A DNA stretch of 43,891 nucleotides from Escherichia phage vB-Eco-KMB35: the sequence record OR525704.1; one strand, given 5' to 3'. Within the stretch, counting starts at the first letter, position 1; the number at the start of each line of letters is the position of its first letter. Positions 1,241-41,647 of this stretch are shown here, piece by piece. The notes beneath the pieces are model-generated. The model saw only the letters and a list, made by a program, of their open reading frames with translations. It did no database searches and was not told the DNA's origin. The position numbers and the translations under genes are program-made.

Positions 1241-2722
1241 ATGTTAACTATGAACGGTCAGAATCAGGGTGTTAAGACAAAACACCGGGAATGGCTGCAT
1301 CACTTCGATAAATGGCAGAAGGTACGCCACGCTCTTGAAGGCGACCTTATCCGCTATCTGCGCAACGTCGGGAAGAACGAGCCTGACCAGACCTACGCAG
1401 CACAGCGACAGGAAGAATACGAGAACGGCGCTATCTGCTACAATTTCACCAAACGCACGCTGGCGGGGATGACGGGGTCAGTGATGCGCAAAGACCCTGA
1501 GCAGATTATCCCGCCTGAACTTGAGTACCTGTTGCACAACGCTGACGGTTCAGGTGTCGGGCTGTGGCAGCACGCGCAGGATACGCTGATGGAGATTAAC
1601 TCGATAGGCCGTGGCGGGTTGCTGGTGGACGCCCCGGAAACAGCCGCAGCAACGGCGGCAGAGCAGAACGCGGGATTATTAAACCCGGTAATCGCATTCT
1701 ATACCGCGGAGAACATTATCAACTGGAGACTCACCCGCATCGGTTCAGTGAACCGCGTGACGATGGTTGTATTGCGTGAGGCATGGGAATACTCGGAACC
1801 AGGCGCTGAGTTTGAAACAAAATTCGGCGAGCAATACCGCGTCCTTGACCTGATTGACGGTCGCTACCGCCAGCGCATCTACCGCTTCGATGCCGAAGGT
1901 GGCGCACAGGATGAAGTAATCGAAATCTTCCCGGAACTCGGCGAACAGTTGCGCGGTAAAATCCCGTTCACGTTCATTGGCGCAAGCAACAACGACGCCA
2001 CTATAGACGATGCGCCTTTACTGCCGTTAGCTGAGCTAAATATAGGACACTTCAGAAATTCGGCCGATGTGGAAGAGGCCAGCTTTATAGTAGGTCAACC
2101 GACACTGTTCATTGCCCCCGGCGAGAACATGAGCATGGAGCAGTGGAAAGAAGCCAACCCACACGGCATACGCATGGGGTCGCGTTCAGGCCACAACATC
2201 GGCTCCGGCGGCAATGCGTTTCTGGTTCAGGCGGCGGAAACTAACCTCGCCAAACAGAATATGCTGGATAAAGAGAATCAGGCCATCCAGATTGGCGCGC
2301 AGCTTATCACCCCGACGCAGCAAATCACCGCTGAATCGGCACGGCTGCAACGCGGCGCCGACACGTCAGTCATGGCAACAATAGCACGTAATGTAAGCAT
2401 GGCGTATACCGATGCGTTGCGCTGGGTTGCGGGTATGCTTGGGCTTAGTGAAGATACTGAGATTGAGTTCAAGCTGAATATGGAATTCTTCCTGCAACCT
2501 ATGACAGCTCAGGACCGCGCTCAGTGGATGGCGGATATTAACGCTGGCCTGCTACCCGCCACCGCTTACTATGCTGCGTTGCGCAAGGCAGGTGTGACTG
2601 ACTGGACAGATGAGGACATTCAGAACGCTATTGAAGACGCACCTCTGCCGTTGGGTTCTGTTGCTCAGGTAGCGGGAGAGATTCCGCAGTCGGCGCAGCA
2701 ACAGGACACCACTCAGCAGTAA
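1241..2722 (+). CDS. Portal protein
   Basis: 493-aa ORF directly after terL, ATG with RBS, size and position typical of portal. Confidence 0.8.
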   Translation: MLTMNGQNQGVKTKHREWLHHFDKWQKVRHALEGDLIRYLRNVGKNEPDQTYAAQRQEEYENGAICYNFTKRTLAGMTGSVMRKDPEQIIPPELEYLLHNADGSGVGLWQHAQDTLMEINSIGRGGLLVDAPETAAATAAEQNAGLLNPVIAFYTAENIINWRLTRIGSVNRVTMVVLREAWEYSEPGAEFETKFGEQYRVLDLIDGRYRQRIYRFDAEGGAQDEVIEIFPELGEQLRGKIPFTFIGASNNDATIDDAPLLPLAELNIGHFRNSADVEEASFIVGQPTLFIAPGENMSMEQWKEANPHGIRMGSRSGHNIGSGGNAFLVQAAETNLAKQNMLDKENQAIQIGAQLITPTQQITAESARLQRGADTSVMATIARNVSMAYTDALRWVAGMLGLSEDTEIEFKLNMEFFLQPMTAQDRAQWMADINAGLLPATAYYAALRKAGVTDWTDEDIQNAIEDAPLPLGSVAQVAGEIPQSAQQQDTTQQ

Positions 2723-2732
2723 GTTCACCTAT

Positions 2733-2755
2733 AGCCCCGAAAGGGGCTTTCTTAT
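2733..2755 (+). terminator. Hairpin agcccc-gaaa-ggggct followed by ttctt after portal gene
   Basis: Perfect 6-bp GC stem with tetraloop and T-rich tail. Confidence 0.5.
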
Positions 2756-2758
2756 AGT

Positions 2759-3835
2759 ATGCTATTAACTTTAGCGCCACAGGGTTTATCTATGAGCTTA
2801 CTTACATCCCTAATCAGCCATCAGATATGGCTGCAACGCACCGCATCCGGTGAAGTGAAAGACCTCACGCCGTTCATTCAGGAGATAAGGGATGAAATCA
2901 AACGGCAGGTGCTGTTATTCGGTGACGACGGTCGCAGCACTGCGCGACTGAATAAACTGTTACGCGACCTGGAAGAAGCACTAACCGGTATTACGGGTGA
3001 CTGGCAAACAAAGCTAACAGACGACCTTAAGGAACTGGCGGCGTACGAGGCTGAGTGGAACGTAAAGACACTGACCGCCAACGTAGACGCGGAATTTGTT
3101 ACGCCTACCGCTGAGCAGGTATGGGCCGCTGCCGAGTTTCAACCATTATCATTGAGCGACAAGCCCGTTGATTTCACTAAGCTGATGGACGGCTGGGGTG
3201 AAACGGAAGTAGCACGTCTTGTAACTGGAGTTAAGATGGGCTTTGTGCAAGGTCAAACCACACGGCAGATTGTTAAGAATGTTGTTGGCGCTGGTGGACT
3301 AGCCGACATCTCAGAACGTAACGCGACTACGGTAATCCGCACCGCGCTGTCCCACGTATCCAACGAGGCCCGTAACGAGACGTACCGCCAGAACGACGAC
3401 ATCATCGAGAAATATGAGTGGGTGTCAACTTTGGACAGCCGTACCAGCACGATTTGCAGGGCCAGAGACGGAATGACGTGGGAAATCGGTAAAGGTCCGA
3501 TGCCACCAGCCCATCCTAATTGCCGAAGTACCACTGCACCGGTAATCAGTTCAGAGTTCGACTTCCTTGATAAAGGCGCAAAACGTGCGGCTAAGGGTGC
3601 GGACGGCGGTACTCAGGTAAGCGCAGACACCACCTATTACGAGTTCCTGAAACAACAACCAGCATGGTTTCAGGACCAGGCGCTCGGTCCTGTTCGCGGT
3701 AAGATTTTCCGTAACAGCGGTATATCGCCGGAAGAGTTTCGCGTAATATCTGTAGATGGTTTCGGGAATCCGCTCACGCTTAAGCAGATGGCGGAACTCG
3801 ATAAACGTGTTGCTGATTATCTGAAAGGGGAATAA
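2759..3835 (+). CDS. Head morphogenesis protein (MuF / SPP1 gp7-like minor head protein)
   Basis: 358-aa ORF after portal; position and size typical of MuF-like proteins. Confidence 0.6.
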   Translation: MLLTLAPQGLSMSLLTSLISHQIWLQRTASGEVKDLTPFIQEIRDEIKRQVLLFGDDGRSTARLNKLLRDLEEALTGITGDWQTKLTDDLKELAAYEAEWNVKTLTANVDAEFVTPTAEQVWAAAEFQPLSLSDKPVDFTKLMDGWGETEVARLVTGVKMGFVQGQTTRQIVKNVVGAGGLADISERNATTVIRTALSHVSNEARNETYRQNDDIIEKYEWVSTLDSRTSTICRARDGMTWEIGKGPMPPAHPNCRSTTAPVISSEFDFLDKGAKRAAKGADGGTQVSADTTYYEFLKQQPAWFQDQALGPVRGKIFRNSGISPEEFRVISVDGFGNPLTLKQMAELDKRVADYLKGE

Positions 3836-4296: not shown

Positions 4297-4297
4297 T

Positions 4298-4326
4298 AAA
4301 AGGCCCCATTATGGGGCCTTAGTTTT
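4298..4326. terminator. Bidirectional hairpin ggcccc-attat-ggggcc between convergent genes
   Basis: GC stem flanked by A-run upstream and ttagtttt downstream. Confidence 0.6.
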
Positions 4327-4529
4327 CAACGGAATCTTGTGTTTAAATCCTGCTCATGGACAACCCTCAGAACAGTGTCATAATCCCCGTATCTTCCAGG
4401 TTCAAATATATCTAATGCCTTGTAAGCAGACATTGCGTCAGGGAAAACCTGCAGAACCTTTTTAACCCGGCACAAGTCACCGTCGAACTCTTCATCGAAC
4501 TCTTGAACTACTTCGCAAATTGCATACAT
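4326..4529 (-). CDS. Hypothetical small acidic protein (67 aa), reverse-oriented moron-like gene
   Basis: ATG at 4529 preceded by GGAGGTG RBS and the 32-bp promoter element; ends at bidirectional terminator. Confidence 0.6.
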   Translation of the reverse strand: MYAICEVVQEFDEEFDGDLCRVKKVLQVFPDAMSAYKALDIFEPGRYGDYDTVLRVVHEQDLNTRFR

Positions 4530-4553
4530 TTTTCACCTCCTGTTTAAGTTAAC

Positions 4554-4585
4554 TGAATAGTACCCTATTATATTGGGGTGTGCAA
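4554..4585 (-). promoter_or_regulatory. Promoter element family A (TTGCAC-N17-TACTAT), copy 1
   Basis: Minus-strand sense ttgcacaccccaatataatagggtactattca; 32 nt identical to 13678..13709; directly upstream of gene 4326..4529. Confidence 0.6.
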
Positions 4586-4651
4586 ACTATTTATTTACGT
4601 ATTCCAGTTATTCCTCCGAATTGTAAATGTTGGAATAAACTATTCGAATAG

Positions 4652-4680
4652 TTGACTTTTCACTAAAAATATGATAAGCT
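4652..4680 (+). promoter_or_regulatory. Putative sigma70-like promoter TTGACT-N17-TAAGCT
   Basis: Hexamers at 4652-4657 and 4675-4680 with a 17-nt AT-rich spacer. Confidence 0.3.
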
Positions 4681-4858
4681 CCACCTGAGCTTGTGAAGTA
4701 TGAACAAGCGACCGCGGCGCGGGCAGGTAACGGAGCGGGACGTAAGTCCTGAGTGTAGTTACGCTGACGCGTTCGGAAGGGCCATACTCTATTGCTTGTG
4801 TAAAAAGTAACTGGTTTACTGAGATTACGCCGTTTCTATGTTTAAATGATAAGGACTA

Positions 4859-4888
4859 GCGCCCCGCTTTATGGCGGGGCTTTACTTA
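4859..4888 (+). terminator. Intrinsic terminator gccccgc-tttatg-gcggggc then tttacttat
   Basis: 7-bp GC stem and T-rich tail just upstream of the Rz start. Confidence 0.55.
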
Positions 4889-4904
4889 TCGAGAAAGGGG
4901 AAAC

Positions 4905-5291
4905 ATGAATCTTAAAGCAACTGTCGTAGCAGGAGCATGTTTCATCATCCTGGTTTACGCACACGGCATCTACCAGTATCGCAGCGGATGGAACGAAGGC
5001 CGGGCTAATCTCGTTTCGCAGCAACAGCAGAAAGCACAGGCTGAGTTAGCGAAGAAAACACAACGGCAGCAGCAGGATGAATCGAAGGCCGCCGCCGCTG
5101 ACAACGAAGGCAAGACGAAATCAGAGGTGATTACCCGTGAAGTCGTTAAGTACATTAAAACGCCTGGTCGCAGCGTGTGCACTTTTGACCCTGAGCGCGT
5201 GCAGCTCAAGTCCCGCGCCGTCGCCAACGCCAATTCCATCCCCGGATACGACGATGATGCAGCCGCCGTGCAAACTGGCGCAGCCAAGTAG
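4905..5291 (+). CDS. Rz-like inner-membrane spanin (i-spanin)
   Basis: 128 aa; N-terminal TM helix (VVAGACFIILVYAHGIY), Q/A/K-rich coiled coil, periplasmic Cys; overlapping +1-frame lipoprotein gene. Confidence 0.7.
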   Translation: MNLKATVVAGACFIILVYAHGIYQYRSGWNEGRANLVSQQQQKAQAELAKKTQRQQQDESKAAAADNEGKTKSEVITREVVKYIKTPGRSVCTFDPERVQLKSRAVANANSIPGYDDDAAAVQTGAAK

Positions 5292-5400
5292 CGACGCTGA
5301 TGAGGATTTGGCCGTCGACGTTCAGAATGCTGAATGCGTACGGCAACTGAGACTGAAAGTGTTCATGTTGCAGGATTACGTGAGGAATATTCTGGAATAG
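5137..5400 (+). CDS. Rz1-like outer-membrane lipoprotein spanin (o-spanin)
   Basis: 87 aa; signal peptide with lipobox LSAC, proline-rich mature part (SPAPSPTPIPSP); starts inside Rz in another frame and extends past it. Confidence 0.65.
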   Translation: MKSLSTLKRLVAACALLTLSACSSSPAPSPTPIPSPDTTMMQPPCKLAQPSSDADEDLAVDVQNAECVRQLRLKVFMLQDYVRNILE

Positions 5401-5482
5401 TTGCCTTGCATGTTGGAATAATTTATTCTTGACATGTAAATCCGGGTGGCCCGGATTCCAACGTCCAGGGGACATACTGACT

Positions 5483-6184
5483 ATGAATCGTTTTTTACGT
5501 TATCCGTTCCAGGAAGAAGCTGGAGCAGAAGATAAAGCTGGTGGCGGTGACGCTCCTAAAATGTTCACCGCTGAAGAAGTTCAGGCGCTGATTGAGAAAG
5601 AAGTTGCCGGGCTTAAGGCTAATCAGGAAGCATTGTTGGCGGAGAAGAAAGAAGCCGCTCGCAAAGCAAAAGAGGCCGAAGAAGAACGGCAGCGCGCGCA
5701 CCAGGAGGCGTTAAAAGCCGCTGGTAAGATGGATGAGTTCGAAAAGACGATTCGTAGCCAGTACGACCCTGTGTTAGCCGAGAAAGACGGTCGCATCTCC
5801 AGAATGGCAGAGCGTATCCTCGGCAGCGAACGTAAAGCGGTGCTAGGCTCTTTCGCGGGTGACTTTATTACCCCAGAAGCAGTGGACATTCTTGCGCCGT
5901 TCGTTAAGACTGAGTTCGAAGGCGATGATGTGGTTACTAAGTTTGTTGGTGCAGACGGTAACGTAATCACGACTGACCCGGAACAGTTCCGCAAATACCT
6001 GCGCGAACACAAGGCGTTTTCGCATTTGATCAAAGCAAATGCAGCTTCCGGCGGCGGGGCTTCCGGTAGCAAAGGCGGCGGGGCCGCACCAGCGTTTAAA
6101 GACATGAGTGAAGCAGAGCGTTTAGCCCTGTATAAATCGAACCCTGCCGAATTTGAACGGCAACTTAAAGCCCTGAGGAAATAA
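5483..6184 (+). CDS. Scaffolding protein
   Basis: 233 aa from ATG 5483 (track ORF uses upstream TTG); Ala/Glu/Lys-rich helical protein immediately upstream of major capsid gene. Confidence 0.6.
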   Translation: MNRFLRYPFQEEAGAEDKAGGGDAPKMFTAEEVQALIEKEVAGLKANQEALLAEKKEAARKAKEAEEERQRAHQEALKAAGKMDEFEKTIRSQYDPVLAEKDGRISRMAERILGSERKAVLGSFAGDFITPEAVDILAPFVKTEFEGDDVVTKFVGADGNVITTDPEQFRKYLREHKAFSHLIKANAASGGGASGSKGGGAAPAFKDMSEAERLALYKSNPAEFERQLKALRK

Positions 6185-11875: not shown

Positions 11876-11904
11876 CTAAGGCCCCGAAAGGGGCCTTTTT
11901 TATT
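11876..11904. terminator. Bidirectional terminator ggcccc-gaaa-ggggcc followed by ttttttatt
   Basis: Perfect stem-loop between convergent major tail gene and minus-strand cassette. Confidence 0.7.
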
Positions 11905-12133
11905 ACTCATCAATGTTACTCCTGTACTCCCGTAACTTTTCCAGACTTTCAATTGCTTCCGCTAAGTCGGTTCCGGTGTCCTTGTGTCCACGTAAACCCA
12001 TGCACAATAGCTTCTTCAATGCGTGCTGTAACGCCGGGTCGCGGATGTCGAAAGCGCGGAGCACATCATAAACGTCTACTGTCATAGTGCTGCCGTGAGT
12101 GTTTGTCATTGTTCGGTTGTATTTTGAAGTCAT
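11903..12133 (-). CDS. Hypothetical protein (76 aa), last gene of reverse cassette
   Basis: ORF overlapping stop of upstream gene (12130), ends at terminator. Confidence 0.5.
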   Translation of the reverse strand: MTSKYNRTMTNTHGSTMTVDVYDVLRAFDIRDPALQHALKKLLCMGLRGHKDTGTDLAEAIESLEKLREYRSNIDE

Positions 12134-13652: not shown

Positions 13653-13677
13653 AATTATTTCCTCAGTAAGTTACATG

Positions 13678-13709
13678 TGAATAGTACCCTATTATATTGG
13701 GGTGTGCAA
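13678..13709 (-). promoter_or_regulatory. Promoter element family A, copy 2 (identical to 4554..4585)
   Basis: 32-nt exact repeat; TTGCAC-N17-TACTAT in minus-strand sense, upstream of 13652 start. Confidence 0.6.
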
Positions 13710-33419: not shown

Positions 33420-33446
33420 ATCTGCCCCTCTCGTTTGGTATGGGCT

Positions 33447-33476
33447 AACTATAATAGCGAACTATTCACATGTCAA
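33447..33476 (-). promoter_or_regulatory. Promoter element family B (minus-strand TTGACA-N17-TATAGT), early leftward promoter
   Basis: Consensus hexamers with 17-nt spacer; palindromic core TAATAG-N4-CTATTC. Confidence 0.6.
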
Positions 33477-33540
33477 TGGGCTTTTCTAAAATAATTAATA
33501 TGGTACTATTCACATATCAACTGACTAAGGAGTAATTGAC

Positions 33541-33756
33541 ATGCAACCATCTGAACTAGGTATCCGTGTAGAACAACGCCGTAAAGAACTCGGCATCTCC
33601 CAGCGCCGTTTGGCGGCCCTGACCGGCGTTTCCCAGGGCGCGATTAACCAACTGGCACTTGGAGTAACTCAGGACGTCCGCCCGGCAACGCTGTTCAAAC
33701 TGGCGGAAGTTCTGGAAGTAGACGCCAAGTGGCTGGCGTTAGGTGAAGGGGCTTAA
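33541..33756 (+). CDS. Cro/XRE-family helix-turn-helix transcriptional regulator
   Basis: 71 aa; LGISQRRLAALTGVSQGAINQL HTH; divergent from replication operon; AAGGAG RBS. Confidence 0.7.
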   Translation: MQPSELGIRVEQRRKELGISQRRLAALTGVSQGAINQLALGVTQDVRPATLFKLAEVLEVDAKWLALGEGA

Positions 33757-33773
33757 AGCCCCTTTCTTTTTAC

Positions 33774-37091: not shown

Positions 37092-37123
37092 TTGCACACC
37101 CCAACATAATAGGATACTATTCA
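37092..37123 (+). promoter_or_regulatory. Promoter element family A (TTGCAC-N17-TACTAT), copy 3, rightward early promoter
   Basis: 30/32 identity to copies at 4554 and 13678 in opposite orientation; 30 nt upstream of ORF 37155. Confidence 0.6.
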
Positions 37124-37154
37124 CTTATCGAAACGAGACAGAGGAGTGAGGGTT

Positions 37155-41343: not shown

Positions 41344-41647
41344 ATGAGTAACGTACAGACAATCGCAATAACCGAGGAACTTGAAGCCAAATGTATCGCA
41401 TGGACTATGGGTAATGACCAGGTTGCTATGCGTAAATTTCCAATGAAAATCACAGACATCGAAGCGTAATGACCAGGTTGCTATGCGTAAATTTCCAATG
41501 AAAATCACAGACATCGAAGCATTCAAAGATGCACAACTGATGGCACGTATTGCCGTTGGCAACCTGAGCAACAATATCCCGGCGGACGCGTTCTGGTTCG
41601 CTGCTATGCAGACACTGAAAGCAGCTTATGCAGGAGAGAAGAAATGA
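41344..41647 (+). pseudogene. Small gene split by a 55-bp tandem duplication (N-fragment 41344..41469, C-fragment restart 41483..41647)
   Basis: Removing one 55-bp copy restores a single 82-codon ORF; with both copies the frame shifts and stops at TAA 41467. Confidence 0.55.
41411..41520 (+). repeat. Perfect tandem direct repeat, 2 x 55 bp
   Basis: 41411..41465 identical to 41466..41520; flanking bases differ. Confidence 0.95.

Follow-up and report, generated by a model that had tools for sequence, protein, structure and literature searches.

The stretch at positions 4297-4585 of the genome of Escherichia phage vB-Eco-KMB35 (OR525704.1; the window, that is the whole 43,891 nucleotides analysed here) is probably a self-contained moron in the sense of Hendrix, placed in a conserved slot between late head units of a virulent Kagunavirus. 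It consists of a promoter-type element, a ribosome binding site (RBS), an open reading frame for a 67-aa protein (orf67) and a terminator, all in reverse orientation between late head genes. A cassette of the moron type is ordinary phage biology. Its promoter belongs to a class found genome-wide and is resident at the slot. The initial annotation had already read the unit as a moron, and at the sequence level this reading stands: the unit is self-contained and reversed, it is patchy in relatives and it is AT-richer than its flanks.

The cassette and its gene

By its sequence the window belongs to a Kagunavirus (Guernseyvirinae) genome. The closest match over 1.5 kb around the orf67 locus is Bas74 (Escherichia phage SonjaBuckley_Bas74) with 99.9% identity, and ten further records match the same 1.5 kb at 96.5-99.6%, including Bas70, 71, 72, 75 and 76, which like Bas74 are BASEL isolates, as well as NTEC3 and 590B. 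About 300 Guernseyvirinae records match this region at lower identity. The cassette is flanked by a Hoc-like gene on the plus strand on one side and by the Rz spanin gene, followed by the scaffold and major capsid genes, on the other. In Bas74 orf67 is Bas74_0006, which is annotated as 'hypothetical protein'. One related record (L049, OR594183.1, vB_EcoM_SHAK7858) carries the taxonomy line Autographiviridae/Kayfunavirus; in its 1.6-kb locus, which matches the window at 92.5%, the genes are arranged as in Kagunavirus (morphogenesis, Hoc-like gene, orf67 slot, spanin), and the Kayfunavirus label is probably wrong.

The initial annotation described an acidic 67-aa gene antisense to the head operon, with a GGAGGTG RBS, a 32-bp promoter element shared with the tail module and a bidirectional terminator, and this anatomy was confirmed (Table 1). 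The gene is in the list of open reading frames and its product has a pI of 4.5. The minus strand ahead of it reads ACAGGAGGTGAAAAATG, and the upstream region in full, TTGCACACCCCAATATAATAGGGTACTATTCAGTTAACTTAAACAGGAGGTGAAAAATG, contains the GGAGGTG site, which is in fact part of the 9-mer AGGAGGTGA, a 9-nt complement of the 16S rRNA 3' end. The 32-bp element is separated from the orf67 ATG by 24 nt and recurs without a mismatch in the tail module; an exact 32-mer repeat within 44 kb is far beyond chance. A third copy is inverted and lies at 37092-37127 (92% over 36 nt).

The claim of a bidirectional terminator was borne out for one direction. The stem has 9 pairs, 6 of them G-C, and with the minus-strand tail TTATCATTCT it was called by the terminator scan, so that a hairpin of the factor-independent type lies directly downstream of orf67, as is expected of a moron. 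On the plus strand the tail TTAGTTTT is an interrupted U-tract and the scan made no call. Action in both directions is plausible, and the case would be stronger for the cassette's own strand. Hairpins of the same family, AAAACTAAGGCCCC-loop-GGGGCCTTTT, are found at the two other convergent junctions of the genome (11871-11899 and 23930-23958).

Table 1. Features of the cassette, its surroundings and related sites; positions refer to the window except where phage Jersey is named.
Feature	Position	Strand	Remarks
Structural genes	1-24 kb	+
Replication genes	24-37 kb	-
Rightward small-gene array and lysis genes	37-44 kb
Hairpin terminator AAGGCCCC-loop-GGGGCCTT	4300..4320		common to Hoc-like gene (+) and cassette (-)
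orf67	4326..4529	-	ATG start, 67 aa; ORF list and translation
Shine-Dalgarno AGGAGGTGA	4533..4541	-	9-mer, 4 nt 5' of ATG, read from sequence
32-bp element	4554..4585	-	100% identical to 13678-13709
Dyad AATAG-N4-CTATT, putative operator	4556..4569	.	overlaps -10
Proposed -10 TACTAT, class-A promoter	4557..4562	-
Proposed -35 TTGCAC	4580..4585	-	17 nt from TACTAT; right cassette boundary
Conserved promoter and RNA region	4586-4904	+	most conserved DNA of region; upstream of Rz spanin, scaffold and capsid genes
TATTCC/TATTCC/GGAATA repeats	4600-4614 and 4632-4637	+	conserved
-35 of leader promoter	4652-4657	+	TTGACT-17-TAAGCT
-10 of leader promoter	4675-4680	+	invariant TG, extended -10
RNA, ~200 nt	about 4687-4890	+	predicted transcript
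Hairpin terminator	4861-4880	+	ends 24 nt before Rz spanin start codon
Class-A copies (n=5)	4554-, 13678-, 37106+, 38274+, 33495+	as given	TTGCAC-17-TACTAT type
Class-B copies (n=3)	26713, 30902, 33451	read on -	TTGAC[A/G]-17-TATAGT
Divergent promoter near HTH_3 gene	33448-33476	-	TTGACA-17-TATAGT
Class-A-type -10 near HTH_3 gene	33495-33512	+
Cro/CI-type HTH_3 gene	33541-33756	+	Pfam E 3.9e-13; own terminator
Phage Jersey (L043), reverse cargos	1845-3224 and 4882-5535
Phage Jersey (L043), amidase promoter	5569-5595	-

We consider orf67 (translation MYAICEVV...NTRFR, 67 aa) a real gene because of its low dN/dS, its homologues across phage groups and a confident AlphaFold model. The dN/dS is 0.08-0.23 (Nei-Gojobori; three unsaturated comparisons). 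With tblastn, homologues were found in 32 phage records and extend to four other phage groups. The initial annotation had allowed for the ORF being missing from sequence-confirmed assemblies; looking for such absence, we found it instead at >=98% amino acid identity in 18 GenBank records. The remaining homologues are at 84%, at 62-67% (Salmonella Jerseyvirus) and at 52-58% (Klebsiella phages and one Escherichia phage record), and the most distant is in Cornellvirus Shemara at 44%. That orf67 is a chance or decaying, unexpressed ORF, with conserved surroundings which serve the neighbours only, would agree with its shortness, the bare 'hypothetical protein' annotation, the missing family match and its absence from most relatives. 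It is very improbable given the purifying selection, a family which spans several phage groups at 44-100% identity, the confident fold and a perfect Shine-Dalgarno sequence at ideal spacing. The base composition of orf67 is foreign to its flanks, as in morons, with a GC content of 43.1% (GC3 0.43) vs 52-58% in the neighbours (Hoc-like gene 53.5%, spanin gene 54.8%, major capsid gene 57.8%). On the antisense strand within orf67 there is a promoter-like site, 4357-4384 (+), TGGACA-16-CATAAT with a TG extension (10/12), which may be due to chance.

The 7.9-kDa product is acidic (14 D+E vs 8 K+R, net charge about -6). AlphaFold2 with the family alignment predicts a single alpha/beta domain in which a helix and a third strand follow a long beta-hairpin (pLDDT 89.5). 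An exhaustive HMM/profile search among 1.84 billion proteins shows that the family is tiny (22 clusters at 50% identity) and phage-only, and nearly every member has 63-75 aa; metagenomic homologues add only a small family. The conserved positions are C5-E-V, F15-D-G and L26-Q-x-F, and the C-terminal F-R is invariant. None of the 22 clusters is informative on the role of orf67. There was no match in Pfam, NCBIfam or PADLOC, only a weak one in PHROGs to an unannotated family (phrog_27256, E 4e-4), and the best hit among PDB sequence profiles was non-significant (E 0.06). Foldseek found no match to the model in PDB, and in BFVD only uncharacterised phage proteins of the same size. Likewise, orf67 resembles no characterised anti-defence protein (anti-CRISPR, Ocr-like DNA mimics, others) in sequence or structure. 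A conserved partner was considered and rejected: the ~170-aa genes which follow or replace orf67 in four phages are unrelated (19-24% identity). We suggest, with low confidence, that the product might bind a host or defence protein stoichiometrically, in host takeover or counter-defence.

Portability and cargo exchange

The unit from promoter to terminator is a discrete, portable cassette. In the Salmonella Jerseyvirus VSt10 an orf67 homologue is found at a different head-module junction, antisense between the portal and head-morphogenesis genes. The two phages align from the -35 (TTGC..) via AATATAATAGGGTACTATT, the Shine-Dalgarno sequence and the ORF to just past the terminator GGGGCCTTTT, which marks the left cassette boundary, and the flanks of the cassette are unrelated. 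Klebsiella phage Geezett likewise has a homologue antisense between portal and MuF. Elsewhere the family is found co-directional in non-structural operons, directly after DNA polymerase A or before primase, and in one other setting co-directional among small genes arrayed behind the lysis genes. This location within early or replication operons of other phages suggests that orf67 belongs with the early or replication genes, and that in structural modules it is inverted and brings its own promoter.

The mapping of presence and absence which the initial annotation had proposed finds orf67 in some related phages and replaced or absent in others: it is in 32 records vs the ~300 which match the surrounding 1.5 kb. 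We surveyed the slot in 37 related loci with the conserved plus-strand promoter (32 IMG/VR loci and GenBank relatives). The motif TGAATAGTnnnCTATTAT is in 28 of the 37, and in 25 loci it sits 87-91 nt from the conserved plus-strand promoter, nearly always 91. Because this near-constant distance is kept irrespective of the cargo, promoter and 5'UTR are resident at the Hoc-spanin slot and not part of the cargo. About 24 nt past the motif an ORF starts whose identity varies between phages, and at least ten unrelated cargos are found in this place (33-35, 57, 61, 67, 70, 81, 83, 94, 173 and 242 aa). The 242-aa cargo is an N6_N4 DNA methyltransferase, the 173-aa cargo has a weak sliding-clamp-like match and the 70-aa cargo has a membrane-type N-terminus. 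Promoter and terminator are 89-100% conserved around ORFs that have no relation to one another. The 5'UTR AAACAGGAG[A/G]TGA.AA-ATG is common to several unrelated cargos, and therefore the exchange points would lie at the start codon and at the terminator.

In phage K1H (L003, about 1500-1650, minus strand) and a Golestan-like phage (L011) the slot is empty by annotation and holds a 33-35-aa hydrophobic ORF, MVMMVAISFVLLVNLGLFVWAVSG..., behind the same slot promoter and a strong Shine-Dalgarno sequence. The junction is empty in phage Jersey, where the conserved leader region comes directly after the Hoc-like gene. In several relatives the motif is repeated 1.8-2.9 kb upstream, and this distance agrees with the portal-morphogenesis slot. 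Phage Jersey carries reverse cargos at the terminase-portal and portal-morphogenesis junctions, a homing endonuclease and an amidase. The amidase promoter has a different dyad, ATGGTATAT.C.TATATATACCAT, which suggests that operators may be lineage-specific.

Putative promoters and a candidate regulator

The initial annotation took the shared promoter as the mark of two inserted units which are co-regulated. This view has to be widened. The core motif ATAATAGNNNACTATTCA (<=2 mismatches) occurs 8 times in the window against 0.04 expected, and 0/100 shuffles reached 8; the copies fall into five of class A and three of class B. The tail-module unit is furthermore no simple insertion. Behind 13678 follow the gene of a 108-aa secreted-type protein, that of a DNA-repair exonuclease, which is conserved (phrog_704, E 1.5e-162), and a 76-aa ORF. 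Bas74 has kept the latter two but differs in the promoter-proximal genes, one of which is annotated as 'superinfection immunity protein'. The unit is a conserved reverse operon with a variable first gene. The promoter is not private to the two cassettes, and any co-regulation would span the whole non-structural programme. For the 76-aa ORF at the end of the tail operon (11903-12133, -), the matches in PHROGs are families of ~210-250 aa, one of them annotated as ATPase, and cover no more than their C-terminal third; the ORF is conserved as such in Bas74 and may be a truncated or split gene. The motif is quasi-palindromic, and within the 13678-13709 copy a promoter-like site on the opposite strand was called at 13670-13698 (+) (GTTACA-17-TATATT, 9/12), which points at the tail assembly chaperone genes. 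This element might fire in both directions.

Both motif classes contain the dyad AATAG-N4-CTATT, over the -10 in class A and in the spacer in class B, and a dyad-symmetric site thus overlaps the hexamers or their spacer at several promoters. Class-A copies are followed by a Shine-Dalgarno sequence and a start codon within about 20-35 nt. The 17-nt spacing is exact in the copies at 4554, 13678, 37106 and 38274, and the block which contains TACTAT is kept in 5/5, including 38274 and 33495 with a degraded inner TATAAT. The counterpart in VSt10 is TTGCTT-17-TACTAT. The copies at 37106 and 38274 head the rightward small-gene array, a region in which we also noted an exact tandem duplication (55-bp unit x2, 100% identical, 41411-41520). 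The class-B promoters face the replication genes, and within that half of the genome they take the top three places among sigma-70 matches on the replication strand (11, 11 and 10/12).

The hexamers at orf67 itself are weak (TTGCAC 3/6, TACTAT 4/6, 7/12 in total, with a spacer of 17 nt), and a generic sigma-70 scan made no call at 4554-4585 because the element is only a moderate match. Its assignment as a promoter draws on position, orientation and recurrence and not on a consensus score, and the element may depend on an activator or serve mostly as a binding site. In the alternative which develops this idea, the element is chiefly a regulator-binding site or a recombination boundary and transcription of the cargo starts elsewhere or needs an activator; as a boundary, element and conserved terminator would be the homology arms for ORF swapping. 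The conserved ends around unrelated ORFs, the junctions at start codon and terminator, the weak hexamers and a dyad typical of HTH dimers all agree with it. Against it, there is no space for another promoter, since in most relatives 24 nt separate the motif from the start codon and the 60 nt that follow upstream are part of the divergent plus-strand control region. Four independent copies also preserve the -35 TTG, the spacer length of 17 nt and, in the -10, A2 and T6. We find this alternative rather unlikely as a full account, and it is compatible with our preferred explanation and not exclusive of it.

We suggest that the 32-bp element is an early/middle-class promoter for the host polymerase with an embedded operator. 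In Kagunavirus fBC-Eco01 the same consensus, detected with PHIRE as tgAATAGTa-ccTATTat-T in seven copies, was assigned to a phage RNA polymerase (PMC9825357). We rejected the idea that the motif is a promoter for a phage-encoded polymerase, which is barely credible: it is contradicted by gene content, with no RNA polymerase gene annotated in Bas74 and none among the ORFs scanned in the window, and the class-B copies are near-perfect sigma-70 promoters (up to 11/12).

The candidate regulator of all AATAG-N4-CTATT promoters is a Cro-like HTH_3 protein. Its gene has two dyad copies upstream (region 33420-33770), and the region is kept at >=94% in 116 Kagunavirus records, with frequent annotation as Cro or repressor; the gene is present in Bas74 and unannotated there. 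In the only Guernseyvirinae RNA-seq study which we found, on a Kagunavirus, an HTH-domain gene is among only four early genes, with a coarse timing and with gene numbers which are the study's own (PMC12645636). Searches of the literature on Jerseyvirus/Kagunavirus with moron, antitermination or sRNA found nothing relevant.

The mechanism which we propose, and which we judge to be probable together with the moron reading, is the following. Host sigma-70 RNA polymerase would start at the minus-strand class-A promoter, TTGCAC-17-TACTAT, and make a short mRNA of ~250 nt, in which a leader of roughly 21 nt with a perfect Shine-Dalgarno sequence precedes orf67. Transcription would halt at the hairpin common to the Hoc-like gene, so that no antisense RNA enters the head genes. 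Since the replication genes, the rightward small-gene array and the Cro-like regulator have the dyad in their promoters too, orf67 would follow the early/middle (non-structural) programme independently of the late genes, and the regulator would probably modulate its expression. The acidic product would then most likely act stoichiometrically by binding a host or defence protein.

Directly next to the cassette, 4586-4904 holds an unannotated feature, a promoter and a structured RNA. The promoter is the only obvious one immediately upstream of the spanin, scaffold and capsid genes. A query with 4586-4900 matches 180 records, 173 of them at >=95% identity. The segment 4684-4890 has 96-100% identity in 35/36 related loci which contain it, Salmonella Jerseyviruses among them, and 92% in the remaining one (L013); the flanks are less conserved across these loci (Hoc 84-100%, spanin 70-100%). 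Phage Jersey and 268 further records, of which nearly all are Salmonella phages, have a 66% identical 'type 2' version of the RNA at this position, with the same architecture and altered helix sequences. In a joint alignment of the two types 98% of cells pair vs 89% in shuffles (0/500 shuffles reach the observed value), where the structure was derived from the same alignment as was tested and the alignment spans only two clades. There are compensatory changes at eight pairs, and slid controls pair at 26-46%.

A 36-aa ORF at 4700-4810, annotated in BASEL records, was rejected because three variants have single-base frameshifting indels. The 'tRNA-Ser' annotated in one record also seems spurious; it overlaps the Hoc terminator, on the opposite strand. 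Rfam gave nothing credible for the RNA at the gathering cut-off or at E <= 10, ARAGORN found no tRNA or tmRNA in the region, and there was no match in 5,426 E. coli genomes and no matching paper in the literature searched. The RNA may serve the late operon downstream as control region and leader, or be an antitermination element; alternatively it may be a stand-alone small RNA. It recalls lambda pR'-6S RNA-tR' or antiterminator RNAs that act in cis. No Q-like antiterminator was found among 10 rightward ORFs. Divergence from one 150-bp region could also mean that orf67 partners the adjacent RNA, for instance as an RNA-binding partner or regulator. This is improbable, as the RNA is 97-100% conserved in relatives with other cargos or an empty slot, and the orf67 family occurs in phages and positions without that RNA. 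The conserved promoter and leader RNA are more unusual than the cassette and may prove to be the more important lead.

Comparison with known systems

Morons are said to have been described in lambdoid and HK97-like phages by Juhala, Hendrix and colleagues in 2000. The orf67 cassette is like them as a promoter-ORF-terminator unit between genes which are adjacent in relatives, within a late structural operon, and shares their presence/absence polymorphism and deviating base composition. Unlike classic morons it is in a virulent phage, so that prophage expression and lysogenic conversion do not apply, and its promoter appears to be of the phage's own early class and to reside at the slot instead of arriving with the gene.

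The putative operators recall the OR/OL sites of lambda Cro/CI, in that several promoters have a dyad over their -10 or spacer and the gene of a small HTH_3 protein lies beside two of the sites. In contrast to lambda, the window has no CI or lysogeny module and the sites are scattered genome-wide, including the structural modules.

In virulent phages T7 genes 0.3 (Ocr) and 5.5-5.9 and the variable early regions of T-even and BASEL phages are hot spots of accessory and anti-defence genes. The cargos described here are similar, being small, often acidic, single-domain proteins of no known fold which vary among close relatives; one alternative cargo is a DNA methyltransferase, and as in T7 5.5-5.9 the orf67 family directly follows the DNA polymerase gene in some relatives. 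The difference is that orf67 itself lacks similarity to characterised anti-defence proteins. As in integron cassettes, one resident promoter serves interchangeable promoterless ORFs at a fixed site. Unlike integrons, the slot lacks an integrase (none is annotated in Bas74) and attC/attI; the cassette boundaries are promoter/5'UTR and terminator and not attC-like repeats, and exchange would be by homologous recombination between these two.

This leads to a broader and doubtful reading, in which Guernseyvirinae would keep fixed slots in late operons, each bounded at one end by a resident early promoter/operator with 5'UTR and at the other by a conserved bidirectional terminator, for integrase-free swapping of ORFs by homologous recombination. 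The cargos would be counter-defence or host-takeover genes and the orf67 family a new inhibitor whose target is a protein of host defence or DNA metabolism. As most cargos have no assigned role, the counter-defence theme rests on one methyltransferase.

The slot is an apparently dispensable landing pad for payloads: the phages are small (41-45 kb), promoter, RBS and terminator are already in place, and the BASEL authors call these genomes attractive for synthetic biology. The ~ten small cargo families, including orf67, are good candidates for host-takeover and counter-defence screens with the BASEL Kagunavirus set (Bas70-76). For the Guernseyvirinae, whose transcription programme is essentially unstudied, our results offer a regulatory model in which one dyad operator and one Cro-like protein would serve all non-structural promoters.
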